A stretch of 18,322 nucleotides of DNA from Candidatus Jordarchaeia archaeon. Lineage in GTDB: Archaea; Asgardarchaeota; Jordiarchaeia; Jordiarchaeales; Jordiarchaeaceae. Positions 3,428 through 18,018 of this stretch are shown here, piece by piece (position 1 is the stretch's first letter; every line of letters begins with the position of its first letter). The DNA lies in NCBI GenBank assembly GCA_029856435.1, contig JAHQXB010000037.1:1-18322 (forward strand), written 5' to 3'. The translations under genes and the position numbers were made by a program. The notes under the pieces were generated by a model that saw only the letters and a list, made by a program, of their open reading frames with translations, was not told the origin of the DNA and did not search any database.

Positions 3428-3514
3428 CTCTCCACCCAACATAATTGCACCTTAAATAAAATGGTTAGGATTTCGCTCAAAACTGGACATTCTAGTTAAA
3501 TCTAAAATTTGTTT

Positions 3515-4045
3515 TTATTGTAGGGGTAATTCTGCTCCGTACTCTCCTACTTCGTAGACCCATTTGACTGTGAAGCCGAGCTTTTTGACCACATGGATTA
3601 TTCTCCTGTTTGTGGGGGAGAGGTAAGCGTATAGTTTTTTTACTCCCGACTTTTTTGCTACTTCTATGGTGTAACTGAGTAGTTTTGTTCCTAGACCCTT
3701 TTCCTGGTAATCGTCGTGCACAACTATGGCTATCTCTGCTTCCCCAGTTTTTTTGTCTAGATAGTAACGGGAATCAGCAACTATTCTCTCTCTCCCATTT
3801 TCGTTTACTATGGCGACAAGCGCCATCTTATCATCATAGTTCACATCACACCAATGTTCCACGATCCACCTCGTGACTGGCTGATAGTTCAAAAAGCGGT
3901 AATAGTTTGTTTCCTTAGATAGGGTGCTGTACATCTCAAACAGTTTTTCCCTGTCAACATCGGGCTTCAAAGGTCTTACAAAAGCCTCCCTACCGTCCCT
4001 CATCTTTATAACAGTCTCAAAATGCGCCGGGTAAACTAGTGACAT
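3515..4045 (-). CDS. Stand-alone GNAT acetyltransferase resembling the GNAT domain of Pat-type protein lysine acetyltransferases
   Basis: N-terminal DG...VRPLKPD..., S.ET.YYRF, EAEIAIVVHDDYQEKGLGT (Q/RxxGxG acetyl-CoA motif) and N......KLGF. Confidence 0.85.
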   Translation of the reverse strand: MSLVYPAHFETVIKMRDGREAFVRPLKPDVDREKLFEMYSTLSKETNYYRFLNYQPVTRWIVEHWCDVNYDDKMALVAIVNENGRERIVADSRYYLDKKTGEAEIAIVVHDDYQEKGLGTKLLSYTIEVAKKSGVKKLYAYLSPTNRRIIHVVKKLGFTVKWVYEVGEYGAELPLQ

Positions 4046-4173
4046 ATTCTCAGCTTCTTTTCCTACAAATAAATACTTTATCCATCAATTGAGCCGAAAC
4101 CTTTTTCCAAGACCTTTGATGTGGTTGTGTTCTCTTGTAAAAAATTTTGAGGAAATCTATTACTTAATGGATG

Positions 4174-5232
4174 CTATTGTCGGAAGTAGGGCACCACTTT
4201 TTCCACGAAGAGTTCCAGTGTTTCCCTATTCAACCGGGAGGGGACATAGAGCGCCATGGCAAAGTGTCTCACACCTCCCTCCACATATTTTGCGATTTTA
4301 TCTATGCAGTCGTCGGGAGAACCGAAAATGAATCGATCCTCGATGGGTTTGACGGGCATCTTCATTACTTCCCCTGCTGCCTCCATCATGGTTTCTGGGT
4401 TAAATACAAAGTGTAAGACGTCCAGCTTCATTTTGGGCGGCTCCACACCATATTCCTTAAGTGTGTCATAGGAGCCAGCGAGAAGCATCTTTGCAGGGAA
4501 TTCAACCAGCTTGAAGGCGGTGTCATAGTCTTTCGCTACAACCATATAGTTGAACATGGCTGGTTCAATCTTCTCCGGGTCTCTGCCTGCCTCCTTAGCC
4601 ATCTTCTTAATTTTCTCAAATTTCTCCCTGTAGTCTTGAGGCTTCATGAAGGTACCTACTGGAATCCAACCATCTCCCAATTCGGCGCAAATTCTCATGG
4701 TTTTAGGCGAGTTTGCGCCAAAATATATTGGTGGGTGAGGATTCTGAACCGCTTTTGGTCGAATAAAGGCTTTTTCAAGCTGGAAGAATTTACCCTCATA
4801 ATTGGAAAAATCTTCTGTTAGAAGTTTAATTATAACTTCGGCTGCCTCCCTGAGGCGGGTTACCGGATGATCCCAAGCTATGTGGTAGGGCACCAAATTC
4901 ATGGCTTCTCCAGCTCCCAGTCCCAACATTGCTCTTCCCTTAGAAAGATGGTCTAGAGTCATAAGGGTCTGCGCCAAAACGGCGGGATGACGCCTATGTG
5001 GGTCACTAACACAAGTTCCCAAAAGTATATTCTTGGTCTGCACCGCCAGTGCACTCAGTACACTCCAAGCCTCGTAAAAATCCCAGTTCTTAATTCCTAT
5101 TCCCACGGTGTGGTCAGCCATCCATATGGAGTCCAACCCCTTTTTCTCCGAGTAAAGGCTTGTCTCCAATACTAGGTCAAGGGGATATTGTGGAGGAACA
5201 AAACCAAATTTAACATTCTCAAACGAAACCAA
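4174..5232 (-). CDS. Luciferase-like (LLM) flavin/F420-dependent oxidoreductase
   Basis: W.ADH, GTCVSDPHRRHPAVLAQ...TLD.LS.GR..LGLGAGE.MN..PY and GDGWIP motifs; TTG start. F420 dependence is inferred from family motifs. Confidence 0.88.
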   Translation of the reverse strand: MVSFENVKFGFVPPQYPLDLVLETSLYSEKKGLDSIWMADHTVGIGIKNWDFYEAWSVLSALAVQTKNILLGTCVSDPHRRHPAVLAQTLMTLDHLSKGRAMLGLGAGEAMNLVPYHIAWDHPVTRLREAAEVIIKLLTEDFSNYEGKFFQLEKAFIRPKAVQNPHPPIYFGANSPKTMRICAELGDGWIPVGTFMKPQDYREKFEKIKKMAKEAGRDPEKIEPAMFNYMVVAKDYDTAFKLVEFPAKMLLAGSYDTLKEYGVEPPKMKLDVLHFVFNPETMMEAAGEVMKMPVKPIEDRFIFGSPDDCIDKIAKYVEGGVRHFAMALYVPSRLNRETLELFVEKVVPYFRQ

Positions 5233-5324
5233 CTAAAACGCCCCAACATTATTTTCATGATTCGCTCTTAAGAACCTAAACCTGAAGTTATCTCTTTTTA
5301 AATCCACTAATTAACCTTTCTACC

Positions 5325-5451
5325 ATCAAACATAGGTGATGTAGATTAGTCCGATTCCACCCCTCATTTCGAGGCTCTGAATCAGAAAAGAAGCCCTATG
5401 AAAGCTTCTTTCGGAGGCGAAATCGAACGAATCTACACCGCGATCAAACAT
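5325..5451. mobile_element. MITE-like fold-back element (or structured ncRNA): 109-bp core 5334-5442 flanked by an exact 9-bp direct repeat ATCAAACAT
   Basis: Direct repeats at 5325-5333 and 5443-5451. Inverted arms 5340-5363 and 5414-5437 pair at 19 of 24 positions. Internal hairpins at about 5362-5374, 5377-5387 and 5388-5410. Confidence 0.55.
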
Positions 5452-5757
5452 GCATACTCGCAGTGTAACAGAATACTCTAGCAGCGGAGTGTTTTGCCAA
5501 AAAATTAATGGGATTTTGAGGGGGAAGAGAAAAATTAACACTTTCTTAACAATGAGCAATGAGTAGAATATATATTCTTCATTCAGTGAACGGATTATTA
5601 TTGCATAAATTCCCGCACTATTAGTTTAATAACCTGTTATGGACGATTTCGAGTGGAGTTTTAAAAAAATAATGATTTGGTGGAATTGCCTTTTCTAAAA
5701 GGCTAGGTAACGGAGTCCATATTAATTAAGTGGGAGTGCCTAGTTTGATTTGTTGGC

Positions 5758-6972
5758 TTATTTTTTAAGTATCTCGTGGAGTACGTTTCCCAGTCTCTTT
5801 ACACCTTCTTCGATTTTTTCGTCTGTGGGATGGGTGAAGTTCAGCCTCATGGTGTTAAGTCCTTTTCCGTTGGGGTAGAATGCAGAGCCTACCACGTATG
5901 CCACATTCTTTTCTACGACTTTGGGAAATATTTCTATGGTGTTTATGTGTTCGGGTAGCCTCACCCAGACGAACATTCCTCCATCTGGTTCAGCGTATTG
6001 TGCCTCTTCGGGGAAATATTCTGCCATAGATCTGAGCATTATGTGCATTTTTCTTCCATAGATTTCTTTGATTTTTTTGATGTGTTGGTCTACGTAGCCC
6101 CGGCTAAGATATTCCGCCCCTATGTATTGGGTGAATGTAGTTGTGCATAGGTCTACGGCCTGTTTGGCCATTATGAATTTTTTAATAAGGTCGGTGGGCG
6201 CCACCATCCAAGCGATGCGGAAGCCGGGCACCAATATTTTTGAGAAAGTACTAAGGTAGACTACACGGTCTTCAGTGTCCAGTGATTTTAGTAGGGGTTG
6301 ATCTTCTCCCCTGTATCTTAGCTCTCCGTAGGGGTCGTCCTCAATTATTAGAACATCGTATGTGTTGCAGAGCTCGATTATTCGTCTTCGGCGTTTTTCG
6401 GGGATGGTTACTCCTGCGGGGTTGTGAAAAGTAGGTGTTATATAGAAGAATTTTAACCGGTTAAGTTCTCCCCTCTTTTGGATATCTTCTAGACGCGCCT
6501 CCAAGTCCTCTACAATCACGGAGTTTTCGTCCATTTCCACCAATTCATATCGGGGGCTCTGGAAATCGAAGGCTTGGATGGCTCCCAAATAAGTGGGACA
6601 AGTTGTGAGGACGATGTCGTTGGGATTAAGCAAAATTCTCCCCAAGATGTCTAATGCTTGCTGAGACCCCGAAGTGATTTGAATGTTTTCAACTTCGCAT
6701 TTCACGTTTTTTGTAGCCATCCTTCTTCTAAGAGCTTCCCTTAGTTCCGGTACACCCTCTGTAGTTCCATACTGGAGCGCATTTGGATTATCAATCACAC
6801 CAGGACAAATTTCATGTATCTGGGGGACTGGAAAGGCATCCGGATTAGGTAATCCCCCAGCAAAGGATATGACCTCCGGTTTCTGAGTTAATTTGAGAAG
6901 CTCGCGAATCACAGACACCTGTAACTTATTCGCAGTGTTTGAGAACAGTTCTGCAAAGGATCTTTTCATCAT
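5758..6972 (-). CDS. PLP-dependent class I/II aminotransferase (LysN/ARO8/MocR-aminotransferase-domain type, no HTH)
   Basis: ISFAGGLP.P, LQYG.TEG...LR, TSGSQQALD, PTFHNPAG, IEDDPY, PLP-lysine motif STFSKIL.PG.RI.W and LRLNF; AGGTG RBS upstream. Confidence 0.92.
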   Translation of the reverse strand: MMKRSFAELFSNTANKLQVSVIRELLKLTQKPEVISFAGGLPNPDAFPVPQIHEICPGVIDNPNALQYGTTEGVPELREALRRRMATKNVKCEVENIQITSGSQQALDILGRILLNPNDIVLTTCPTYLGAIQAFDFQSPRYELVEMDENSVIVEDLEARLEDIQKRGELNRLKFFYITPTFHNPAGVTIPEKRRRRIIELCNTYDVLIIEDDPYGELRYRGEDQPLLKSLDTEDRVVYLSTFSKILVPGFRIAWMVAPTDLIKKFIMAKQAVDLCTTTFTQYIGAEYLSRGYVDQHIKKIKEIYGRKMHIMLRSMAEYFPEEAQYAEPDGGMFVWVRLPEHINTIEIFPKVVEKNVAYVVGSAFYPNGKGLNTMRLNFTHPTDEKIEEGVKRLGNVLHEILKK

Positions 6973-7046
6973 GGTACACCTAACTTTTAGTACTATATTG
7001 AAATGCTTTTGACCCGAATACCATTTATTCGAGCCCTTCTAAATTG

Positions 7047-7060
7047 TTGTAATATTACAA
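7047..7060. promoter_or_regulatory. Perfect 14-bp palindrome TTGTAATATTACAA, candidate operator of the aminotransferase gene
   Basis: Exact dyad symmetry, with an extra TATTACA half-site at 7063-7069. It lies about 25 nt downstream of a minus-strand TATA-like TTAAATTA (7081-7088), where a transcription start would be expected. Confidence 0.55.
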
Positions 7061-7218
7061 GTTATTACACGGGACACATTTTAATTTAACGGTTAACTTT
7101 TTTTAACTCTACAGCAAAGGGTTCCATACTTTTTGCAGTGTAAGTATTTTTTCTGTTCTTATTATACTAGTTGCTTCACAAAAAGGCAACATCTCACCAA
7201 GGACACTCCATTACTCAT

Positions 7219-7233
7219 TTTTACGTAGTAAAA
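7219..7233. promoter_or_regulatory. 6-3-6 inverted repeat TTTTAC-GTA-GTAAAA upstream of the lpl-like promoter
   Basis: Perfect arms, about 40 nt upstream of the BRE/TATA at 7271-7285. AT-rich context weakens significance. Confidence 0.3.
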
Positions 7234-7270
7234 GGGACGCGCCCAAAACAATTATAACTATGTAATTTAA

Positions 7271-7285
7271 AGAAAAGTTTAAATA
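7271..7285 (+). promoter_or_regulatory. Archaeal BRE+TATA promoter (AGAAAAG-TTTAAATA)
   Basis: Close match to the archaeal consensus, about 50 nt upstream of ATG 7337. Confidence 0.7.
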
Positions 7286-7336
7286 AAATTATGACAAATA
7301 TTTCAAAACTAAAATTAATTTTTGTAGAGGGAAAAA

Positions 7337-8431
7337 ATGGCTAAAGCAAGATTTGTTGTAGATAAAAAAATGACGGGAGTAGAAATACTCGTACTTTTCG
7401 GATCCCTCCCCCGACTGAGAGACGCAGAAAAAATCCCGGATACCCTATTCGTATTAACCTGGGACAGACCCTCAGTAAGCTTAGGAAAATATGAGGACTT
7501 AGACGGACTAAAATATGACAACATAAAGAGAGACAAAATACTAATCGGAAGAAGGCCCTCAGGGGCAGGAATATTGTGGGCACCCCCAGGAGGAATGGGA
7601 GCAGGAATAGTGGTTACCAAAGACACCTTTCCCAACATAGACACGGCAGAAAAAATTTGGGCCGGAGAAATTGTAACAGAACTTTATAGAAGAGCAGGAA
7701 TAAGAGACGTGTGGTATAAACATCCAGGCGATGTAAAAATTGGAGAGAGGAAGCTTTCGGGAACTACTTGCATTGAATTTGGGAAGGGAATAATCGTAGG
7801 CTCCTTTATCAACAGACTTAAGCCAGACACCAAGTTCTTTGAAGACTACCTAATATATCCGGAGGAGAAGCTTAAAGACAAAATGCTCAAGGACATCACC
7901 GAATACGCTGCAAGCATCGAAACCCACGCACCCAAACTAATAAGCGAGGAGCAAGTAGCGAGAATCCTCCAAGACCTCGTCAAAGAGAAACTGGGCTTAG
8001 AGTTCCAACCAGGAACTTGGACCCAGGACGAGAAGAACTTCCTACAGTTTGGCATGAGTATGTTAACCGACGAAAAAATGGTGACGAGTGTTTCGCATAG
8101 CAGGTGGTACTCCCAGCTTCAGGCCGGCTTAGCCGCAGCAACCTACCGCTACAAGACCATGAAGCTCATAAGCGCCAACGTAGCCGTCGACGAGACCAAA
8201 AAGATTAGGGACGTCCTGATAACTGGCGACTTCCTGATATCACCAGCTGAAGGCTGGGAAAAAATCATGGAGGCCCTCAAGGGCCTGAAGGCCAATGACG
8301 AGAAAGCCATAAAAAGGGCAATAAAGGAAACGTTTGAAAAGAACAAGATTGACTACTCGGGATTCACACTGGACGACATGGCAAAACCAGTCATAGAAGC
8401 AGGAAAACTAGCCATACAAAAGCTGAAATAA
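7337..8431 (+). CDS. Lipoate-protein ligase family protein (catalytic domain plus C-terminal accessory domain), divergent
   Basis: PSVSLG, RRPSGAG (canonical RRxSGGG), GDV.I..RKLSG with conserved Lys139, PEEKLKDK, and C-terminal I.DV.ITGDF..SP. Confidence 0.8.
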   Translation: MAKARFVVDKKMTGVEILVLFGSLPRLRDAEKIPDTLFVLTWDRPSVSLGKYEDLDGLKYDNIKRDKILIGRRPSGAGILWAPPGGMGAGIVVTKDTFPNIDTAEKIWAGEIVTELYRRAGIRDVWYKHPGDVKIGERKLSGTTCIEFGKGIIVGSFINRLKPDTKFFEDYLIYPEEKLKDKMLKDITEYAASIETHAPKLISEEQVARILQDLVKEKLGLEFQPGTWTQDEKNFLQFGMSMLTDEKMVTSVSHSRWYSQLQAGLAAATYRYKTMKLISANVAVDETKKIRDVLITGDFLISPAEGWEKIMEALKGLKANDEKAIKRAIKETFEKNKIDYSGFTLDDMAKPVIEAGKLAIQKLK

Positions 8432-8438
8432 GAAGGAT

Positions 8439-8462
8439 AAAAAAGCCCTTTTTAACTTTTTA
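8439..8462. terminator. A/T-tract region between the convergent lpl-like gene and acxC; possible intrinsic terminator
   Basis: A-tract and T-tracts (AAAAAAGCCCTTTTTAACTTTTT) immediately after the lpl-like stop. Confidence 0.35.
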
Positions 8463-8563
8463 TTGCTATGAAAAACTCTAGGTTTTCATTCTTTATCTAA
8501 AACGCGTAAGCGTATGTACGTTTGCTATAAAAAACATTTTTCATGTTTTATCTAGAAGAGCTT
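8463..8563. repeat. Two imperfect ~40-bp direct-repeat copies (8463-8502 and 8522-8563)
   Basis: TTGCTATGAAAAACTCTAGGTTTTCATTCTTTATCTAAAA versus TTGCTATAAAAAACATTTTTCATGTTTTATCTAGAAGAGCTT. Copy 1 contains the inverted repeat ATGAAAA-N8-TTTTCAT. Confidence 0.6.
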
Positions 8564-8632
8564 ATGTAGTTTTTTGTACTTCATTTGGGCCGGACTTCAA
8601 ATGTTTGTTTTTATGGCTTGATGATGCTTTTG

Positions 8633-9148
8633 CTATTTGGTTGTTTCTTTGTTTGTAGCGTCTGGTGGGTCTCTTTTTAGCCATTCTTTGTAGAATGTGT
8701 CTATGTCTGGTAGGAAGTCGAATATTGGTGGGTAGAATGGTGGAACAGCTTCGACGTCTAGTAGGGTTTTGCACTGGGGACAGAAGTATTCTCTCAACTC
8801 TTGGTAATTGGTGTTGGTGGACATGTATTTGGGATATATTTCCATTAGTTTTTCTTCGGTGTCTCTTACGTATATGAGTGCGTTTAATTTCCAGTTTTCT
8901 CGGTAATCGCCAAACTCGTAGCCGCAGTCGCACTTGATGATTCTCTTACCCTCCTTGGCCACTATGTAGAGATGCTCTGCGTATGGCAGTATGATTTTCT
9001 CGCTCCAAGGCACCTTTTCCTGTAGTATTTCCAGATACTTGTCGAAGCGGTCTGTGTCCTTGGGTGAACTTAGCATTTCCTTGATTTCAGGCCAGGAAAG
9101 TTTTCCTTCGATGAGTTTTCTAATTCTCTCCTTAGTGTAGCTCGTCAC
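8633..9148 (-). CDS. acxC: Acetone carboxylase gamma subunit
   Basis: KD..RF..Y...LQ..VPW...I.LP..EHLYIV, Zn ligands CDCG and CPQC, ENWKL.A.IYVRDT.E, PP.YP.I.DF.PDID.FY.EWL. GTG start preceded by AGGAGGTG overlapping the acxB stop. Confidence 0.93.
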   Translation of the reverse strand: MTSYTKERIRKLIEGKLSWPEIKEMLSSPKDTDRFDKYLEILQEKVPWSEKIILPYAEHLYIVAKEGKRIIKCDCGYEFGDYRENWKLNALIYVRDTEEKLMEIYPKYMSTNTNYQELREYFCPQCKTLLDVEAVPPFYPPIFDFLPDIDTFYKEWLKRDPPDATNKETTK

Positions 9149-9161
9149 TTAAAACCACCTC

Positions 9162-11417
9162 CTAGAAAAAGAAGTCCTCGGGTAAGCCCCAGAATTCCCT
9201 AAACTCCTTACCCCACCTTTCAGAAATCCTGAAGGAGTCATTGTACATTTCTTTTATTTCTTGGCATACTTCCCTCTTCAGAATCCTCGATCTAGTTTTT
9301 TCAATCCATTCCCTAACTGGAACAGCCTTTCTTCCCCTTTCCTCCCTGAGCTCCTTCCTTTTCTTTTCTGTCTTCTCCCTGTTTACCTTCCATTTCCCGG
9401 ATGCTTCGTCACGCTCCAAAATCACACCATAAGTGCTCTCCGCAAATCTGAAAAGAATGGACTCCTCATTAACATCTTTAGCAACTCTCTCTGGATCCCT
9501 TTCTAGCACGTCGCCGTACCCATCTCCACCCCTCACAGAGTTTATGTAGAGGTCTCCCTGGTTGAAGAGAATTTCAGGAGGAATAATCATCCTCTTCTCG
9601 TAGACATAGTCACCTTTAACATATTTTCTTATTTCAGAGTTTTCTGGGTCAAACTCTCTATAGGGGTAGGGCTGTTTATTTTTGATGAGCTCCATCATGT
9701 TGGTATTGTGTATTTCGCGTCTATAGCCACCAGCAGCAGGGTAGCCTCCAAATAGTCCTCCACTGGTAAATATGCTTATACCCATCCACATAAGTTCATA
9801 GTTATTGGTTTTCCAGAGCATACGCACTGATTCAAAGCCGTTGCCACCCCGGAATTTTCCAGGACCAGCAGAGTTAGGCTGAACCCTCCTACCCAAATAT
9901 AGTAGTGGTTCCACTATCTCCCATACCTCTACGTCACCCATGTCAGCTTCGGGGTTAAACATGGCAAAAGCGTGGTCTAAACCGTCCTCAAAGGCCCTAG
10001 CTCCGAGACCCGAACTTGCAAACTCAAAGTTAAACATTGCAGACTCCTGACCCAAATGATCCTTTCCGCCGCCGGACATCAGATTGTGACACACCGTCAT
10101 ACCCGCCAAAACCTCCTCAATAAATCCCCTGGAGAAGTATCCCCTACTATAAGATCTGAAAAGGCCATTGAGACCAGTAATGAAGCTCCCCCAACTAAAG
10201 ACGGTACAGGGGAGTGTTGATTCTGGATTGAGAATAGAACCATAGGGAAGTTTAAGCTCAAACACTAACGATAGACCGGCGTTTATTTTGTCGCTGGGCC
10301 AGATTATCTCCGAGCTGATGGAGTAGAGGCCGCCATAAACGGCGCTGGGTGAGGCGTTGAAGGAGTGGTAGCCCCATTTTGAAGCCCCATCAAAATCTAT
10401 TATGATTTTACCGTCGGGCTTTATGGTCATCTCCATGGGCATATGCATCACGGTGTCCTTAGCTGCTCTAGCAGGTACTCTTTTTGATCCCTTGAATGTT
10501 ACATCGCCGAAGGAGGCTGAGCGGTAGCGTCCCGGAATCATGGTTCTTTTTATAACCTCTAGTACTGACAATCGGCCATCTTCTATGGCTTCACGGATGA
10601 AGCGTTTGAAGTTTTCTATTCCGATCTCTTTTATCACTTTGTGAACTGAGTTCCGGATTATGTCGCAACCAGCTAGCCTGGCTTTCTCGTCCAGTTTCCA
10701 GTAAATGGGGTTTCTTATGAGGCGTTCACATCTCACTTCCCAATACTTGTAAATTGTGTCATTTTCGCCAATTTTTTCGCAGGGAGCCTTAAGTCCCTCC
10801 TCGTAACAGGTGGTGGGCCCCACGGGTGCTGTGCCTGGTACCACTGCTCCAATGTCTAGGCCGTGTATGCAGGCTCCAGCCCACGCCACCAATTCTCCCT
10901 TCCAGAAGATTGGCTTTATGGTGTGAACATCTGCGGTGTGACAGTTTCCTATGAAAACATCGTTATTACAGAAAACATCGCCTGGCGCAATTCCTGGATT
11001 ATCCTCGTAGTCGTTTCTAATCATCCACTTTATGGCATCACTCATGGTTCTCACGTGGGTGATTATTCCTGTGGAGATTGCAATTGTGTCACCCTCTGGA
11101 GTATAAAGGGTGAAGCATAATTCTCCTAACTCTTGGACGATAGGTGAGGCGGAAATGTTCATGGAGGTTTCTCGGGCGCTGACTAGGGAGCCTCTGATGA
11201 GTGCGAATATCCGCTCGTAGACCAGTGGATTCTGATCCTTGTATTCCAATTTTTCTAGTCCATAGTATCTTCCTGTTTTTTGGAAAAGTTCCTCGGATTC
11301 CTTTAACATTTCTTTAAGAGTTTTACCGTTCCAACCAATTTTTCGGGTTCTTGAGCCTTCTACTCCCTCAATCTCTACCAATTGGGGTTCTCTAACAAAA
11401 CTTGGCACTTTCCTCAT
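9162..11417 (-). CDS. acxB: Acetone carboxylase alpha subunit (hydantoinase B/oxoprolinase family)
   Basis: IGWNG.TL..ML, SPIVQE.GELCFTLY, NNDV.IGNCH.AD...W...IH..D.G, PGRYR and EFWGLPED motifs. Putative Mn ligands E99/H160/D163/H185. ATGA overlap with acxA. Confidence 0.93.
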   Translation of the reverse strand: MRKVPSFVREPQLVEIEGVEGSRTRKIGWNGKTLKEMLKESEELFQKTGRYYGLEKLEYKDQNPLVYERIFALIRGSLVSARETSMNISASPIVQELGELCFTLYTPEGDTIAISTGIITHVRTMSDAIKWMIRNDYEDNPGIAPGDVFCNNDVFIGNCHTADVHTIKPIFWKGELVAWAGACIHGLDIGAVVPGTAPVGPTTCYEEGLKAPCEKIGENDTIYKYWEVRCERLIRNPIYWKLDEKARLAGCDIIRNSVHKVIKEIGIENFKRFIREAIEDGRLSVLEVIKRTMIPGRYRSASFGDVTFKGSKRVPARAAKDTVMHMPMEMTIKPDGKIIIDFDGASKWGYHSFNASPSAVYGGLYSISSEIIWPSDKINAGLSLVFELKLPYGSILNPESTLPCTVFSWGSFITGLNGLFRSYSRGYFSRGFIEEVLAGMTVCHNLMSGGGKDHLGQESAMFNFEFASSGLGARAFEDGLDHAFAMFNPEADMGDVEVWEIVEPLLYLGRRVQPNSAGPGKFRGGNGFESVRMLWKTNNYELMWMGISIFTSGGLFGGYPAAGGYRREIHNTNMMELIKNKQPYPYREFDPENSEIRKYVKGDYVYEKRMIIPPEILFNQGDLYINSVRGGDGYGDVLERDPERVAKDVNEESILFRFAESTYGVILERDEASGKWKVNREKTEKKRKELREERGRKAVPVREWIEKTRSRILKREVCQEIKEMYNDSFRISERWGKEFREFWGLPEDFFF

Positions 11418-13549
11418 TTCCTCCTTATGTGAAATATTCTATACTCGTCTAGGTATGCATAACAGTCTCGGGGCAGGAAAAGAGTGGTGTTGGGAGATTC
11501 TATAATTGCGGTGCCATTGATTTCGTTTCCTGCGTCTAGTAGATGCATTTCGTACACTTCTCCGGATGACCATTGGCTTCTCCAGTAAACGTCTCTTTCT
11601 CCCTTGAAGGCCTCTTCGGGGGGCTTTCTGCCCTTCTTTTCCTCCTTGTATAGCACTGGTTTTTTTAGGGGGTATCTTCCAACTCCTATGGTGTATGTGA
11701 AGTAGTATCCTGCTTCGGGTAGTTTTGCGCTTCGGGCGTAAATTTTTTCGTAGTGTTTTTCAAAGGTTTCAATTACTTTGTCCATATCTTTTCCTGAGAG
11801 TATCTTTTCTACTGGAGAGGGGAATTCTAGGTCGGTGAGTTGGCCTGCGTATTGCATTCTGGCGTAGGGGTGGAAAGTTATTTTTTCCTTTTCGCAGCCG
11901 GCATCTATTAGTTCTTTGAAGCATTCCTCTCTCTGGGAGTTCCAGAATCCGGTAACCAGTGAACCAATAAAGCTCTTAAATTCGTCATTGGCATTAGGCC
12001 AAATGGGAAGGTCTGATGAGCGATCTCTTCTAGCCTCTAGATTCCCACAGGCACAGCCAAAGGCCGAAAAGGCAGCCGCCCAACTGGGAACCAAGACATC
12101 CAAAAAGGGGATTTCTCGAGTATAGTTAGCCGCTAGGACCGGGCCACCCCCACCATAGGAAAGCAGAACATAGTCAACCGGTGAATAGCCTCTACCCAAT
12201 ATGGCTCCGTAAACAATGTCCCTCATCTGGGTCTCAAGTAATTCTACAATTCCTGCAGCGGCATCGTAAGTGTCTAGGCCCAGTTCGGATGCTACTTGTT
12301 TTTCTATCTCTTTGTACGCTTTTTCCTTGTTTAGCTTTATTTCTCCGCCTAAAAAGTAGTCTGGGTTCAGAACTCCCAGTATTAGCTCGCAATCAGTAAT
12401 GGTGGGCCACTGTACCCCGCCTTCCTCATATGAGACTCCTATACGGTAACCAGCACTGTCTGGACCGATTTCTACCCTCTTTGATATGGGATCCACTCGT
12501 ACATAGCTTCCCATACCTGCTCCTCGACTCTCTGTAGCCACCATGGGGAGATTAATGAGAAACCTGCCTATTTCGGGGTTGGCTTCAATAGTGTATTCTC
12601 CGTCGGTTATTAGCCCCACATCAAAGCTTGTTCCACCAACATCGGTGCACACAATGTTTCTTATGCCTAAGACTTCTCCCAAATATTTGCCTCCAATTAT
12701 TCCGCCTATGGGACCGGAAGTCATGGAGCGAATCAACTGTTTTGTTTCTATACTAATTGCGCCTCCATGGCTTGACATAATCCGGAGGTCGAATCTTGAC
12801 TTTAGTTTTTTCAGTTCTTGGTCAATTTTTCTCAGTTGACTTCTTGATCCTTCAGCAGCGTAGGCTTCCAGAGTTACTACATTCATTCTTGGAAAATCGC
12901 CTCTGATAGGATGGAATTCGGAGGCGGTTATGATGGGAATGTTCACCTTTCTCTCTGCCAAGATTTTTTGTGCTATTTCTTTGGCTCTGCTCTCGTGAAT
13001 CCCATTCCTATAGGAATAAAGAAAATTGATGACAATAGCTTCGACTCCTAGGTCTAATAGTTCTTTAACCGCTGATTCCACTTCGTGCTCATATAGGGGT
13101 ATTACTATGTCCCCCATGACATCTATTCTCTCCCTTACTCCTCGAATAAGCTCCTCGGGTATGAGTGGCTCATTGTGAATGTGGGTGGCAGCGTGGAACC
13201 TGTCCTGGTAGGAGTATCCCATATAGGTTTGTTTGGCTCTCTCCAGGCGGAAATAGTGTTCCATTCCCTTTGTTACTATAGCTCCCACTTTGCGGCCCTT
13301 CCTCTCGAGAACCCTGTTGAGCATGGTGGTTCCAGAGTAAATGGCAGTTTCAAGGCTGGGAACAGCTTCTTCAGCCTTCATATCCCAATAATTTAAAGCA
13401 TTACTCAGAGAGGCCAGAAATCCTATGGACTCATCGTGAGGAGTGCTACGCGCCTTACCGATGGTGAAGCGGCCCTCGTCGTCTATAATTATGGTATCTG
13501 TCATCGTGCCGCCAGCATCAATTGCCAGAACATTTGGAACCTTCACCAA
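11414..13549 (-). CDS. acxA: Acetone carboxylase beta subunit (ATP-binding, hydantoinase A/oxoprolinase family)
   Basis: ASKHA motifs IDAGGTMTDT and DVGGTSFD, plus YSGT.MLNR...RKG, SGPIGG.IG.KYLGEVLG, GPDSAGYR.GV, VP.WAA.FSAFGC and MQY.GQL.DLE. Start is TTG 13549 or GTG 13546, after a GGTGA RBS at 13556-13560. Confidence 0.93.
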   Translation of the reverse strand: MVKVPNVLAIDAGGTMTDTIIIDDEGRFTIGKARSTPHDESIGFLASLSNALNYWDMKAEEAVPSLETAIYSGTTMLNRVLERKGRKVGAIVTKGMEHYFRLERAKQTYMGYSYQDRFHAATHIHNEPLIPEELIRGVRERIDVMGDIVIPLYEHEVESAVKELLDLGVEAIVINFLYSYRNGIHESRAKEIAQKILAERKVNIPIITASEFHPIRGDFPRMNVVTLEAYAAEGSRSQLRKIDQELKKLKSRFDLRIMSSHGGAISIETKQLIRSMTSGPIGGIIGGKYLGEVLGIRNIVCTDVGGTSFDVGLITDGEYTIEANPEIGRFLINLPMVATESRGAGMGSYVRVDPISKRVEIGPDSAGYRIGVSYEEGGVQWPTITDCELILGVLNPDYFLGGEIKLNKEKAYKEIEKQVASELGLDTYDAAAGIVELLETQMRDIVYGAILGRGYSPVDYVLLSYGGGGPVLAANYTREIPFLDVLVPSWAAAFSAFGCACGNLEARRDRSSDLPIWPNANDEFKSFIGSLVTGFWNSQREECFKELIDAGCEKEKITFHPYARMQYAGQLTDLEFPSPVEKILSGKDMDKVIETFEKHYEKIYARSAKLPEAGYYFTYTIGVGRYPLKKPVLYKEEKKGRKPPEEAFKGERDVYWRSQWSSGEVYEMHLLDAGNEINGTAIIESPNTTLFLPRDCYAYLDEYRIFHIRRK

Positions 13550-13575
13550 TTTTTATCACCGATTATTTTCAAACC

Positions 13576-13609
13576 AAAAACAATTCATAGCTTATCTAGA
13601 AAGAAGCTT
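13576..13609. repeat. Third copy of the repeat seen at 8463-8563, same orientation, immediately upstream of acxA
   Basis: AAAAACAATTCATAGCTTATCTAGAAAGAAGCTT shares AAAAACA, TTCAT-N3-TTATCTAGAA and GCTT with 8530-8563. Confidence 0.5.
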
Positions 13610-13867
13610 TATATTTTTAATTCAAGTTTCTAAATTTTTATTATTCGCACATATAAAATTATCCAACAGTTTGTCAAGTTGCAAAACATATAAATTTTTT
13701 AACATATACTATTAATTACTGTAAAATTTTCAAAAAAACAATATAAAAATTATAAAAAATTCAATTTAGGCAAATGTGTTAAGAACCAAAATCACGCCAC
13801 AAGGCAACTCTGGTATCATGCCAAAGAGGGAACAGCATAAAGTTTACTCAGGAGAAGAATAATATTT

Positions 13868-14512
13868 TTAGTAATCATTGGAGAGGGATTCTACAAATGA
13901 GTAGTCTAATTTTATGTTTTCGTTGGCGTTCCCAATGACGGGGACATCGTGACCCGGTAGGAGTATCTCAACATCTAGTTCTGTTAGCTTTTTTATGGAT
14001 TTTTTAAGTTCAATTATGTCGCCTCCGGGGATGTCTGTGCGTCCCACCCCATAGGCAAATATGGTGTCTCCGGAAAAAAGGATCTTTTTCTCCGCATTGT
14101 ATAGGCAGATGCTGCCTGGGGAATGACCCGGAGTGTGGATAACTTTAAAATTCATGTTCCCCAGCGGTATTATGTCTCCGTCCTTTAGCTTGACTTGAAC
14201 ATTGAAGCCCGCCTTTTTCTCAATGTAGGCAGCCTCAATTTCGTGAATCATTACTTCAGCTGCACAGAAATCCACTACTTCAAGCACTCCGCCAATGTGG
14301 TCTGGGTGGAAGTGGGTTATTACCAATTTTTTTATGTTCAGAGGATCCAAGCCCAGAGATTCGATATCTTTGATGAAGTGGCTCCTGAAATCTCCAGTTA
14401 AGCCAGAATCAACTAGTGCCAGTTCACCCTTGCCCACCACGTAAACGTTTGAACCCCAAGAACGCCCAGGAATCATTGCTATTTGATCAATTATCTCCAT
14501 TTCAAATTTCAC
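13868..14512 (-). CDS. MBL-fold metallo-hydrolase (glyoxalase II-like)
   Basis: THFHPDHIGG (HxHxDH), HTPGHSPGS, FSGDT.F..G.GRTD and LPGH. The start is probably ATG 14500, because GGGTGA at 14509-14514 sits at RBS distance from it. Confidence 0.9.
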   Translation of the reverse strand: MKFEMEIIDQIAMIPGRSWGSNVYVVGKGELALVDSGLTGDFRSHFIKDIESLGLDPLNIKKLVITHFHPDHIGGVLEVVDFCAAEVMIHEIEAAYIEKKAGFNVQVKLKDGDIIPLGNMNFKVIHTPGHSPGSICLYNAEKKILFSGDTIFAYGVGRTDIPGGDIIELKKSIKKLTELDVEILLPGHDVPVIGNANENIKLDYSFVESLSNDY

Positions 14513-14550
14513 CCTTTCTCGGAAGATTAACTATACAGAGACCTAAACAC

Positions 14551-14564
14551 ATTTATATTTTCGC
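14551..14564 (-). promoter_or_regulatory. BRE+TATA candidate for the MBL gene (GCGAAA-ATATAAAT)
   Basis: Consensus-like motif about 50 nt upstream of the probable start. Confidence 0.55.
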
Positions 14565-14688
14565 CTAGGTTTAGAATCTGAGTTCAATGGTTGAATTTTT
14601 AAGTGATAGGAAAATGTTATTTCTAAAAGTTTGTAAAGAATTTAATTATGCAATGTTATTTTGCAAGTTGTTGGAGGTTTAGTTAGTT

Positions 14689-15108
14689 ATGCCGAGTGTG
14701 GAAGAGCTTTTGGAGAAGGCTAAGGATTTCTATCCTAAACACCCAGACCTTATGAAGCATCTGGAGATAGGAGCGCTGTGGGAGTATCATGTTCGCCCCT
14801 TCACACTGGACAGCAATGATAAGCTCGTCTTCCACTTAACAAAGCTTTCTGAGAAGGAAATCAGGTTTGAACAGGGACCGGCGCCAGAAAAGCCTGACTT
14901 AATACTGTATTTTACGGAGAACGCCATGGTGAAACTGGTTGATGAATCAAAGGATGCTGACACCTACTATGAGAATTACCGTGAAATACTCAAAAACCCC
15001 GATGTGGGAGTGGAACTGGACTACAAAATAAATAAACCCCGCCTAAAACTCTTTAGAATGGGCTACAAAGAATGGGCAGACGCCTACAAGTTCCAAGCCT
15101 GGACTTAA
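14689..15108 (+). CDS. Hypothetical protein, possibly SCP2 (sterol carrier/lipid-binding) fold
   Basis: 139-aa ORF with GGAGGT RBS at 14673-14678. The segment F..GPAPEKPDLILYFTE..M.KL resembles the SCP2 G...xPD.tl......f..l pattern. The fold call is weak. Confidence 0.75.
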   Translation: MPSVEELLEKAKDFYPKHPDLMKHLEIGALWEYHVRPFTLDSNDKLVFHLTKLSEKEIRFEQGPAPEKPDLILYFTENAMVKLVDESKDADTYYENYREILKNPDVGVELDYKINKPRLKLFRMGYKEWADAYKFQAWT

Positions 15109-15162
15109 AACCAAAAAAGTCGAGGATTCACCCTTTGACCTTTTAATCGATATGGGAACCAT

Positions 15163-15435
15163 TTAATAAAATATTTTATCTGATCTTTTCATCTTTAGAT
15201 ATTCTTCCATGTAGGCTCTTAGCCCTTTTTCTCCAGCGGCTTGGATGGCTAATTCTTTATCACCAATTATCTTTACTTCTACTTCGTCTAGGGAGTAGTC
15301 GGAATCTAAAGAGTCGTCATTGGCAATATCTACTCTCAGCGAGTTGCCCACCCTCACCATACACTTCCTTTTCCCTTCCACAATTCTTGTTACGTATTCC
15401 CCTGTGATGTAATCCCAACCCTTGGTTACCTTCAT
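15163..15435 (-). CDS. Small hypothetical protein (90 aa)
   Basis: ATG start with GAGGAG RBS 9 nt upstream, natural charged-globular composition, fills an otherwise empty gap. No recognised family. Confidence 0.7.
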   Translation of the reverse strand: MKVTKGWDYITGEYVTRIVEGKRKCMVRVGNSLRVDIANDDSLDSDYSLDEVEVKIIGDKELAIQAAGEKGLRAYMEEYLKMKRSDKIFY

Positions 15436-15600
15436 CTCGAACAGCTCCTCTTACAATTTAATCAATCGGAAATAAAAGTATTTTTTCTTTGTCCCTTATC
15501 GAATGCTGTTTTCAAGAATTTTTCAAACAAAATATTCAAACCAAATATATTTCAACAATTTTACAAATATATTTTTAAACAAATTTATTAGAACGAAAAA

Positions 15601-15615
15601 TAACAGGTTTATATC
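15601..15615 (+). promoter_or_regulatory. BRE+TATA candidate for the corrinoid/methyltransferase operon (TAACAGG-TTTATATC)
   Basis: TTTATATC at 15608-15615; GAGGTG RBS at 15646-15651 before TTG 15657. Confidence 0.55.
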
Positions 15616-15656
15616 TTTGGGTGTAATGGTTTTGGAATATTAGTAGAGGTGGTTTC

Positions 15657-16304
15657 TTGAGTGAAGTTTTGAGTAAAATTGCCAAATCTATCGAAGAGTT
15701 GGATGGAAAAGAAGCCGAGAACTTGGTGAGGAAGGCTCTGGACGAAGGTGTTGACCCAGTTAAGATTTTGGAGGATGGAATCATTGCCGGGGTCAGAGCC
15801 GTTGGAGAAAAGTTTGAGAAAAAGGAGTATTTTTTAGCTGAACTCTACGAAGGCGGTGAAATAGCGGAGAAACTGGTGGAAATTGTGGGCCCTAGGATAC
15901 CCAAGGAGGCGGGTGGGGCACGCAAGAGAGTGGTTATTGGCACAGTGCACGGAGACCTACATGATATAGGTAAGAATCTTGTAGCTATGCAGCTTACCAT
16001 GGCGGGCTTTGAAGTTAGAGATCTAGGCATAGATGTTCCCGCAATGAGGTTCATTGAAGAGGCGGAGAGCTTCAAGGCAGATATTATAGCTATGTCATCT
16101 CTCTTGATGGCCACAATGATGAATATGGCAGAAGTTGTGAACCTTCTAAAAGAGCTTGGCTTAAGAGACAAATACAAAGTACTGGTAGGCGGTGGCCCCA
16201 TAAATCCCGCTTTAGCTCAAATGTTTGGAGCAGACGGATATGCTGAGAACGCTGTGGAAGCGGTAAAGGTCGCCAAAAAGTTAGTGGGGTTGGGAGGTGC
16301 TTAA
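15657..16304 (+). CDS. mtmC: Methyltransferase cognate corrinoid protein (MtmC/MtbC/MttC family)
   Basis: N-terminal cap domain (G...VGEKFE..EYFL.EL), B12-binding DxHxxG (GDLHDIGKNLV, His102), SSL..T and VGGG. Symbol assigned from its coupling to the MtmB homologue. Confidence 0.9.
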   Translation: MSEVLSKIAKSIEELDGKEAENLVRKALDEGVDPVKILEDGIIAGVRAVGEKFEKKEYFLAELYEGGEIAEKLVEIVGPRIPKEAGGARKRVVIGTVHGDLHDIGKNLVAMQLTMAGFEVRDLGIDVPAMRFIEEAESFKADIIAMSSLLMATMMNMAEVVNLLKELGLRDKYKVLVGGGPINPALAQMFGADGYAENAVEAVKVAKKLVGLGGA

Positions 16305-17679
16305 AAAAATGGTTAGAATAAAAGACATACAAGAAAGAGCTCTGACAGGACCAGTTATGAAGGAGAGAGAATATGATAAAATGCTTTCCAAAAGGGTGCG
16401 CGAATTAGTAAAAGACTACGACATAAAATTTGACATGAACCAGATTATTCCAGATGACAGTGTAGGTGACGATGTTTTCAAAGCAGGATTAGACCTCCTA
16501 ATAGACGTGGGCATCTACCATCTGGACACTAACAGGAATATCAAATTTACAGAGAGCGAAATAAAAGAGATGATTAAAAGCCGACCCAGCGAAGTGAAAT
16601 TCGGAACCGGCAAAGACCAAATAACAATCAAGAATAGAAAACCCGAAGAAAAGACGAAACCAGTAATAACCACTGGAGGAGGCATACTCAGCGAAGACAT
16701 GTTCCTCCCAATAGTAAAATCTTGTGCGCAAGAACCCACTTGCCAGGGAATCAACGGCTTCAGCTTAATCAGCGCCTGGGGCCTAGATAACAAAACCGGA
16801 ACCCCCGGAGAAATTATGTGTGCCATAGCTGAGGGATTATGGAACAGGGAAGCCGTAAAAAGTGTAGGAAAACCCGGTCTTTATATAGGCTTAGCAGGCG
16901 CAAGTGCGCTCTCGCCAGCAGGAGCCATAGCTGCCTTCCACCCTGACGGGTACACCAAAGAAAACGCACAGATACCCATACATCTTTTCAACGAACTCAA
17001 ACTGACCTGGAGCAGATTCATACTAGCCACATATGCCCGGCTAAACGGTATAGTGCCCTGGACCTCTTATGGTGCAGCCATAGGACTCCTTTTCCGAAAT
17101 TCTGAGGAGGCATCTGTAGGAGCCATCGCCGCTCTGCTAGCGGAACTAGCCTATGGGCAGGGATCCCTCTGTATGGGTGGCGGCATGGGATCAGACGGCA
17201 TGGTGATGAGAAGAGAGTCCCTAGCTTCGGGCGCTGCTTGCACGTTAGCTTTGACTAATAATCTTCACGTCCCTGTGGGAGGAGTTGGTGGCGGTGGCGG
17301 TTACGCAGGACCTTGCACCGAGATGCGTGTTTACGAAATCGCTATAATAAATCTGATGAGTGTAGCGTCAGGAGCCGGCTGGCTCTGGTACAGTGGAACA
17401 CTTAGAACATTGATTAACTACTGCACAGGCATGGAGGGTAGAATAATGGGTGAAACAGCCCGCGCCATAGCTGGAATGAAAAGAGCCGACGCCAACGAAT
17501 TAATAAATAAACTCTTACCCAAAATAGAAGACAAGGAAAACCCGGAAAAAGCACCTATGGGTAAGAGCTTCATGGAATGCTATGATATAAAAACCTTAAC
17601 TCCATCAAAAGAATACACAGACCTCTACGCAAAGGTAAAAAAGGAACTCATAGATTACGGCATAGAGTACGAGTACTAA
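16297..17679 (+). CDS. mtmB: MtmB-family (monomethylamine:corrinoid methyltransferase-like) protein without pyrrolysine
   Basis: FKAG..LL..VGIY..DT.R.IKFTE.EI, FGTGKD, G.PG, NELK, AGPCTEM, TGME.R.MGE.ARA.AG and GK.F.ECYD.KT.TP..EY. No in-frame TAG. The start is probably ATG 16309 (GGAGGTG at 16293-16299). Confidence 0.9.
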   Translation: MLKKMVRIKDIQERALTGPVMKEREYDKMLSKRVRELVKDYDIKFDMNQIIPDDSVGDDVFKAGLDLLIDVGIYHLDTNRNIKFTESEIKEMIKSRPSEVKFGTGKDQITIKNRKPEEKTKPVITTGGGILSEDMFLPIVKSCAQEPTCQGINGFSLISAWGLDNKTGTPGEIMCAIAEGLWNREAVKSVGKPGLYIGLAGASALSPAGAIAAFHPDGYTKENAQIPIHLFNELKLTWSRFILATYARLNGIVPWTSYGAAIGLLFRNSEEASVGAIAALLAELAYGQGSLCMGGGMGSDGMVMRRESLASGAACTLALTNNLHVPVGGVGGGGGYAGPCTEMRVYEIAIINLMSVASGAGWLWYSGTLRTLINYCTGMEGRIMGETARAIAGMKRADANELINKLLPKIEDKENPEKAPMGKSFMECYDIKTLTPSKEYTDLYAKVKKELIDYGIEYEY

Positions 17680-17692
17680 TCGCGACCTAACA

Positions 17693-17817
17693 ATCCAAAA
17701 CTTAATGGATTTACACACATCCACCTCTTTTTTACTGTATATTCCCCAAATTAGGTTTGTTAGAAAATATAAATCGTTACAAAAATAGACTCCTCTGAAT
17801 CCAAACTATTAATGGAT
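17693..17817. repeat. Two copies of an ATCCA-N8/9-TGGAT palindromic motif (17693-17710 and 17799-17817)
   Basis: AATCCAAAACTTAATGGAT versus AATCCAAACTATTAATGGAT, about 106 nt apart. Confidence 0.45.
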
Positions 17818-18018
17818 GTAAAAGTCTTTGGTGCAACTTGCTTAATGTTTGAGCTTGTGGAGGGTTTTTACACCTTTTTCTAAAAATCGTTTTTTTCCTC
17901 CTTTTGCTCAAAGGAACCCTTTTATGTCTTCTTTTAGAAGAAGACTTTAACTCGAAAAACCCAATCACCCTCCAGTCGAACACATTCCAAAAACCCAAAA
18001 AAAGACTTTTTGCACACC
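17813..18018. mobile_element. Degenerate long inverted repeat; possible decayed MITE/IS remnant
   Basis: AAAAGTCTTT (17820-29) with its complement at 18001-10; AATGT 14 nt further in on both arms; TGGAGGGT (17858-65) with its complement at 17967-74; an internal 8-bp hairpin at 17926-17945. Confidence 0.35.

Follow-up and report, generated by a model that had tools for sequence, protein, structure and literature searches.

The DNA analysed here (the window, 18,322 nucleotides) is the whole of contig C28 in a 3.54-Mb metagenome-assembled genome (MAG) of a sediment Asgard archaeon belonging to the Freyarchaeia/Jordarchaeia. On its reverse strand it carries three genes resembling acxA, acxB and acxC, which specify the beta, alpha and gamma subunits of an acetone-carboxylase-type enzyme. 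The genes are encoded together in the order beta-alpha-gamma, with neighbours overlapping or 13 nt apart. Features of the locus and two further operons of this type in the same genome are listed in Table 1.

Table 1. Features of the acx-like locus and of its paralogous operons (positions refer to the window unless a contig is named).
Feature	Position	Strand	Basis
acxA-like beta subunit (HyuA/ASKHA ATPase, 711 aa), operon gene 1	11414..13549	-	open reading frame (ORF), Pfam, PDB match
acxB-like alpha subunit (HyuB type, 751 aa)	9162..11417	-	ORF, Pfam, PDB match
acxC-like gamma subunit (171 aa)	8633..9148	-	ORF, PF08882, PDB match
AGGAGG within the beta gene end, 2 nt ahead of the alpha ATG	11420..11425	-	sequence
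AGGAGGTG overlapping the alpha stop, 7 nt ahead of the gamma GTG (9148)	9156..9163	-	sequence
AT-rich upstream spacer, 318 nt	13550..13867	-	sequence
Conserved block with TTTTATAT (13651-13658), candidate TATA box	13612..13663	-	alignment of three orthologous contigs
Short interspersed repeat insertion just downstream of the gamma gene	8463..8570	.	synteny gap; missing in orthologous contigs
Paralog 2 operon	C34 (L017 3025-7916)	-	beta-alpha-gamma set
Paralog 3 operon	C103 (L018 2941-7923)	+	beta-alpha-gamma set

Domain and structure matches agreed on the three-subunit set proposed in a preliminary description of the sequence. The beta protein contains the Pfam domains Hydant_A_N, Hydantoinase_A and Hydant_A_C, the alpha protein Hydantoinase_B, and the gamma protein Acetone_carb_G (PF08882, E = 1e-43). 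In searches against all PDB chains, the top match of each subunit was the Xanthobacter acetone carboxylase: 5m45_B for beta (E = 9e-216, residues 6-710), 5m45_A/5svb_A for alpha (E = 3e-207) and 5m45_C for gamma (E = 8e-54). Acetophenone carboxylase (Apc) came behind, with E values of 3e-107 (beta), 4e-40 (alpha) and 4e-6 (gamma), and the NCBIfam models for this enzyme scored 28-373 bits against cut-offs of 250-1500. A second HyuA copy or an epsilon-like gene was not found beside the operon, where the adjoining genes encode a metallo-beta-lactamase (MBL)-fold hydrolase and a lipoate-ligase-like protein.

The two large subunits are members of the HyuA/HyuB superfamily, public entries name their relatives "hydantoinase B/oxoprolinase family protein", and a gamma-glutamyl cyclotransferase-like gene adjoins paralog 2. 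These features would suit an ATP-dependent hydrolase of the hydantoinase, oxoprolinase or caprolactamase kind that carries a third small subunit, a reading that we consider unlikely. Matches to hydrolases of this group (caprolactamase, 6yra; N-methylhydantoinase, 7hk5) reached E values of only 8e-69 and 6e-15, behind those to acetone carboxylase by over 140 orders of magnitude, and the NCBIfam caprolactamase models CapA and CapB gave 354 and 81 bits against 1000-bit cut-offs. Described hydrolases are, moreover, two-subunit tetramers without gamma; the gamma subunit is treated as a marker specific to the Acx/Apc ketone carboxylases, and three subunits as the architecture of acetone carboxylase, while Apc and Acr have five (PMC13677872). 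Because the gamma subunit is present and the architecture is three-subunit, we assign the predicted complex with high confidence to the Acx-type ketone carboxylases.

The residues expected at the active and metal sites are all in place. In the phmmer alignment to 5svb_A/5m45_A, which is gapless in this region with an offset of +10, alpha residues E99, H160, D163 and H185 correspond to Xanthobacter E89, H150, D153 and H175, described as the Mn(II) ligands, with E89 essential (PMC12250083). The correspondence given in the preliminary description therefore holds. All four ligands are invariant across the alignment of alpha subunits. The two ATP-phosphate motifs claimed for the beta subunit are likewise found, DAGGT at 11-15 and DVGGT at 303-307, aligned with Xanthobacter DAGGT26 and DIGGT318. 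In the gamma subunit, C73, C75, C123 and C126 align with C74, C76, C124 and C127, named as Zn ligands of the Xanthobacter protein (PMC5543143), and both expected cysteine pairs are thus retained.

Comparison of the window with two orthologous contigs in other MAGs yielded dN/dS values of 0.02-0.04 over the three genes (beta 0.03-0.04, alpha 0.024) at dS of 0.36-0.67. With ratios this low, the acx genes are maintained by strong purifying selection. The gene content, conserved residues and selection support the view that the operon encodes a complete and apparently functional three-subunit Acx-type carboxylase in an Asgard genome.

The host assignment, which the preliminary description had wanted confirmed, proved to be archaeal. 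The MAG is 97.8% complete with 5.74% estimated contamination, contains two TATA-binding protein (TBP) genes and lacks McrA. Its contamination estimate, and the fact that the best alpha identities outside the genus (50-52%) are to Bacillota, Chloroflexota, Desulfobacteraceae and Actinomycetota, would be expected if a bacterial contig had been binned into an archaeal MAG. Against this, positions 3459-17993 are syntenic, at 88-92% nucleotide identity, with contigs of three MAGs of the same genus from different studies (Candidatus Jordarchaeia QZM_A3, Candidatus Freyarchaeota SQRJ_82 and an uncultured archaeon), where the alpha subunit is near-identical (97-98% aa). The tetranucleotide correlation of the contig is typical of the genome (0.972 vs. 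a median of 0.975), as is its GC-content (0.433 vs. 0.42), and other contigs of this MAG carry at least 25 further copies of the repeat downstream of the gamma gene, which has a core of 55-118 bp. A contaminant is therefore highly improbable, and bacterial contamination is excluded for practical purposes.

Read depth at the repeat was 753 vs. 68 in the source run, with loose ends. The repeat contains two copies (8485 and 8540) of an 18-nt motif, TTCATnnnTTATCTAGAA, a third copy of which lies at 13584 on the upstream side of the operon. We considered the motif as a matched pair of cassette boundaries and found this unlikely, the downstream copies being located in a multi-copy repeat that the orthologous contigs lack.

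Translation signals at the gene junctions were present as previously described. The beta and alpha genes share an ATGA start/stop overlap at 11414-11417, and the Shine-Dalgarno-like motifs ahead of alpha and gamma lie within or across the end of the preceding gene (Table 1); TAGGAGGTG spans the alpha stop (9162-9164) and joins it to the gamma motif. The beta gene most likely starts at TTG 13549, since this codon is conserved in the three orthologous contigs, unlike the GTG at the next codon; GGTGAT at 13555-13560 (reverse strand) lies 5 nt ahead of it. The small-subunit ribosomal RNA gene, which would hold the anti-Shine-Dalgarno sequence, is absent from the MAG.

The block containing TTTTATAT is positioned about 100 nt upstream of the operon within the AT-rich spacer, which would serve as the promoter region. 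For the archaeal expression signals claimed earlier, this conserved block in an AT-rich spacer is no more than a candidate. Two runs labelled "metatranscriptomic WGS" (whole-genome shotgun) were rejected as expression evidence: contigs of a relative at ~92% cover genes and spacers alike, as DNA would.

The genome encodes two more complete beta-alpha-gamma operons (paralogs 2 and 3; the window carries paralog 1). The preliminary description had presented a single operon; its completeness stands, but with three paralogs in this genome and frequent occurrence in Lokiarchaeia it is less singular than implied. The large subunits of the paralogs are mutually 42-46% identical and the gamma subunits 52-62%. 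Each is about equally far from the Xanthobacter enzyme (40-46% for the large subunits, 41-49% for gamma). The Mn ligands are kept in all three, and in the gamma subunit of paralog 3 an alanine replaces the first Zn cysteine. Paralog 2 is oriented divergently from an amidohydrolase_2 gene followed by a major facilitator superfamily (MFS) transporter gene, and the gamma-glutamyl cyclotransferase-like (GGACT-like) gene lies downstream.

Of the 400 Asgard genomes searched, 78 carry the gamma marker, and most of these are Lokiarchaeia. One Lokiarchaeia (Promethearchaeota/Promethearchaeia) family, including Loki_b31, accounts for 71 positive genomes out of 135 (G144-G278; loci L052-L077, L162, L168-L219). 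The Lokiarchaeial copies are of the paralog 2 type, relatives of which also occur in Haloarculaceae, Natronomonas, one Thermoproteota MAG and Dehalococcoidia. Among these genomes, the paralog 1 type is confined to the genus of the window, where three further genomes have it, and the sole single-contig genome of the genus has no acx operon of any of the three types. Acx-type operons of the paralog 2 kind were also seen in individual MAGs under the titles Hermodarchaeota, Hodarchaeota and Bathyarchaeota. A beta-alpha fusion is suggested for one Lokiarchaeial genome, where a 1473-aa open frame contains the alpha match (G162:C34:11631-13829). Alpha ORFs of many Solirubrobacteraceae measure 950-1200 aa from stop to stop, for which high GC may be the sole cause.

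Phylogenetic analysis of the alpha subunits was performed with FastTree (124 sequences) and with IQ-TREE for 36 representatives (LG+C20 PMSF, ultrafast bootstrap/SH-aLRT). Named relatives of the Xanthobacter protein were used in place of the enzymes of Aromatoleum, Helicobacter, Cupriavidus and Rhodobacter capsulatus; proteins 70-86% identical to it come from Paracoccus, Rhodovulum, Roseovarius and Burkholderia (Paracoccus/Rhodobacterales 82-86%). The Xanthobacter alpha subunit and those of Bacillota formed a clade with 100/100 support. Paralogs 2 and 3 fell into a 99/98 clade with halophilic archaea, Thermoproteota, Dehalococcoidia and a Paracoccaceae/Solirubrobacteraceae group. Forcing the Asgard paralogs together, a grouping named after the tree had been seen, cost 189 log-likelihood (lnL) units (approximately unbiased (AU) test, p = 2e-65). 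With the single clade rejected, the three operons are therefore not the result of a lineage-specific duplication. Rooting by a distant Asgard HyuB (G107) was discarded, the outgroup branch having a length of 10 and the resulting basal position of the window alpha subunit being untrustworthy. The simplest reading, though not proven, is that paralog 1 was acquired from an unsampled, probably bacterial, lineage, because its occurrence is patchy and restricted to one genus.

The best explanation of the locus, to which we give a probability of roughly 60%, is an (alpha-beta-gamma)2 ATP-dependent carboxylase of the AcxABC kind in an anaerobic Freyarchaeia/Jordarchaeia archaeon. A promoter in the upstream spacer would drive transcription of all three genes together, and their start/stop overlap and the Shine-Dalgarno motifs at both junctions would link translation of the subunits. 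If the mechanism follows that of the Xanthobacter homologue, beta would bind ATP at its two ASKHA phosphate motifs and phosphorylate bicarbonate and a small aliphatic ketone, acetone or butanone being the best guesses. Both intermediates would then move to the Mn(II) site of alpha and be joined there into a 3-oxoacid (acetoacetate), while gamma would hold a structural Zn. One of the many family-I CoA-transferases of the genome would activate the product, and a thiolase encoded elsewhere would cleave it.

Several observations weigh against this explanation. Identity to the Xanthobacter enzyme is 43% (alpha), 46% (beta) and 49% (gamma). In the IQ-TREE phylogeny the window alpha subunit is not grouped with biochemically characterised acetone carboxylases; it forms a long orphan branch without a supported sister, outside the Xanthobacter/Rhodobacterales/Bacillota clade. 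Characterised acetone carboxylases from Rhodobacter, Paracoccus, Aromatoleum and Cupriavidus presumably belong with the Xanthobacter-like taxa, and if that placement holds, no characterised enzyme brackets the lineage of the window. The presence of three divergent paralogs in a single genome points to different substrates, and no acetoacetate genes are linked to the operon. Energetically, carboxylation of acetone at 2-4 ATP equivalents has been judged too expensive for sulfate reducers, which rely on a different route (PMC4103992, PMC7888143), and published work portrays the Freyarchaeia as acetogens that are anaerobic and non-methanogenic and have the Wood-Ljungdahl pathway (PMC11291895).

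Given the 43% identity, the orphan position and the three paralogs, the substrate may be a different ketone. An enzyme of the same architecture and chemistry may act on a longer or functionalised methyl ketone in place of acetone, each paralog having a ketone of its own, and we treat this as the most serious, though still doubtful, competitor. It would agree with the mutual divergence and separate phylogenetic affinities of the paralogs, with the amidohydrolase_2 and MFS transporter genes adjoining paralog 2, and with a Rhodococcus family member recently shown to use a substrate that its annotation did not predict, over a broader range of ketones (PMC13677872). However, the canonical three-subunit enzymes studied accept only acetone and butanone (PMC13677872), and the window holds no pointer to a different substrate. 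We retain the AcxABC-kind carboxylase with acetone as the presumed substrate. Of the ketone-carboxylating function proposed in the preliminary description, the ketone carboxylase itself is well supported, but for acetone in particular the argument runs through homology at 43-49% identity from outside the Xanthobacter clade.

In the textbook route, acetone yields acetoacetate, CoA transfer turns this into acetoacetyl-CoA, and two acetyl-CoA result, of which only one net acetyl-CoA is left for substrate-level phosphorylation. With this yield, a fermentation by such a route cannot recover its own ATP cost. Assimilating carbon or removing ketones beside another energy source is a more plausible role than a catabolic one.

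Profile searches of the window proteins revealed no sigma-54 activator (AcxR), CoA-transferase or thiolase, as had been stated before, and two small ORFs inspected as possible regulators (14689-15108 and 15163-15435) had no Pfam match. In bacteria, linkage of acx genes to genes for acetoacetate activation and thiolysis is frequent, though not the rule everywhere. Elsewhere, the genome contains 18 family-I CoA-transferase (PF01144) domain matches, corresponding to roughly nine A/B pairs of which some adjoin thiolase genes, along with 27 thiolase-like matches. An acetoacetyl-CoA synthetase was not found above cut-off in the genome, where sub-threshold matches were to generic acyl-CoA synthetases only. 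Given the abundance of CoA-transferases and thiolases, no unusual activation step is required, and the different route of acetoacetate activation proposed earlier is needless.

In one cluster (C21:4407-10250), unlinked to any acx operon, two family-I CoA-transferase pairs flank a thiolase; it is a candidate module for acetoacetate activation and cleavage. Two genes of the acetoacetate-decarboxylase family (ADC, PF06314) are located at C30:4298-4951 and C145:66150-66794, the latter 1.3 kb from a thiolase. Speculatively, they could provide an internal source of acetone, or they may encode an unrelated hydratase/aldolase.

Gene context was rejected as a functional clue, a Lokiarchaeial locus being surrounded by peptidases, an acyl-CoA dehydrogenase and other unrelated genes. 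The neighbours in the window (MBL-fold hydrolase, lipoate-ligase-like protein, aminotransferase and corrinoid protein/MtmB-like genes) are conserved in the genus and suggest no ketone pathway. At 15657-17679, a full-length MtmB-family ORF (460 aa, Pfam E = 4e-83) has its start overlapped by the gene for an MtgC-like corrinoid protein. This ORF has no in-frame TAG and is a pyrrolysine-free homologue; use of pyrrolysine is reported for the host lineage. A zinc-type alcohol dehydrogenase (323 aa) is encoded at 117-1088 on the reverse strand, 7.5 kb from the operon and outside the stretch shown to be syntenic; it is conceivable as a secondary-alcohol (isopropanol) dehydrogenase.

To our knowledge, acetone carboxylases have been characterised biochemically in bacteria only. 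A search of the available literature returned no paper discussing acetone carboxylase in Asgard archaea, the archaeal mentions examined being generic COG names, and the main texts and available supplements of the two Freyarchaeia/Jordarchaeia metabolism papers contained no mention of the enzyme. More broadly, Asgard archaea (this genus, and about half of the genomes sampled in one Lokiarchaeia family) might use biotin-free, ATP-dependent ketone carboxylases under anoxia and energy limitation, for carbon assimilation or removal of ketones from fermentation and not to gain energy, with an undescribed substrate or nucleotide stoichiometry in the window paralog, a proposal that we regard as tentative. 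If true, it would represent the first archaeal ketone carboxylase and an unrecognised CO2-incorporating step in Asgard carbon metabolism. If the enzymes are active, a reaction that consumes ketones and fixes bicarbonate is missing from the published metabolic reconstructions of Asgard archaea, and an expense of 2-4 ATP equivalents in anaerobic acetogens would need an energetic explanation. The three divergent paralogs of this genome offer a natural panel for studying what sets substrate range. The system is of moderate interest, mainly for its wide occurrence among Asgard archaea, its three paralogs and the question of its energy cost.

Among known systems, Xanthobacter autotrophicus AcxABC (5SVB/5SVC/5M45; EC 6.4.1.6) shares with the window operon its gene order, three subunits and full-length collinear alignment, and the Mn E/H/D/H set, ASKHA motifs and Cys4 Zn site are all kept. 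The window operon differs in sequence (43/46/49% identity), in its anaerobic archaeal host and in having no AcxR/sigma-54 control. Its alpha subunit also lacks the C-terminal tail of ~30 residues found in the 776-aa Xanthobacter protein, the alignment ending at residue 742. Apc of Aromatoleum aromaticum (5L9W) and Acr of Rhodococcus aetherivorans have homologous large and small subunits and a proposed phosphorylation-then-carboxylation mechanism, but their five genes include a duplicated HyuA-type subunit and an essential epsilon, both absent here. CapAB (6YRA), N-methylhydantoinase and 5-oxoprolinase share the HyuA/HyuB fold and ATP dependence; they are hydrolases without gamma, whereas the window operon has gamma. 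The Acx-type operons of Lokiarchaeia, Haloarculaceae/Natronomonas, Thermoproteota and Dehalococcoidia also consist of three genes and include paralog 2 in their 99/98 clade, but the window operon is only 42-46% identical to those of the Lokiarchaeial type and is not grouped with them. The window operon is no new kind of enzyme; it is a known kind in an unexpected host group.

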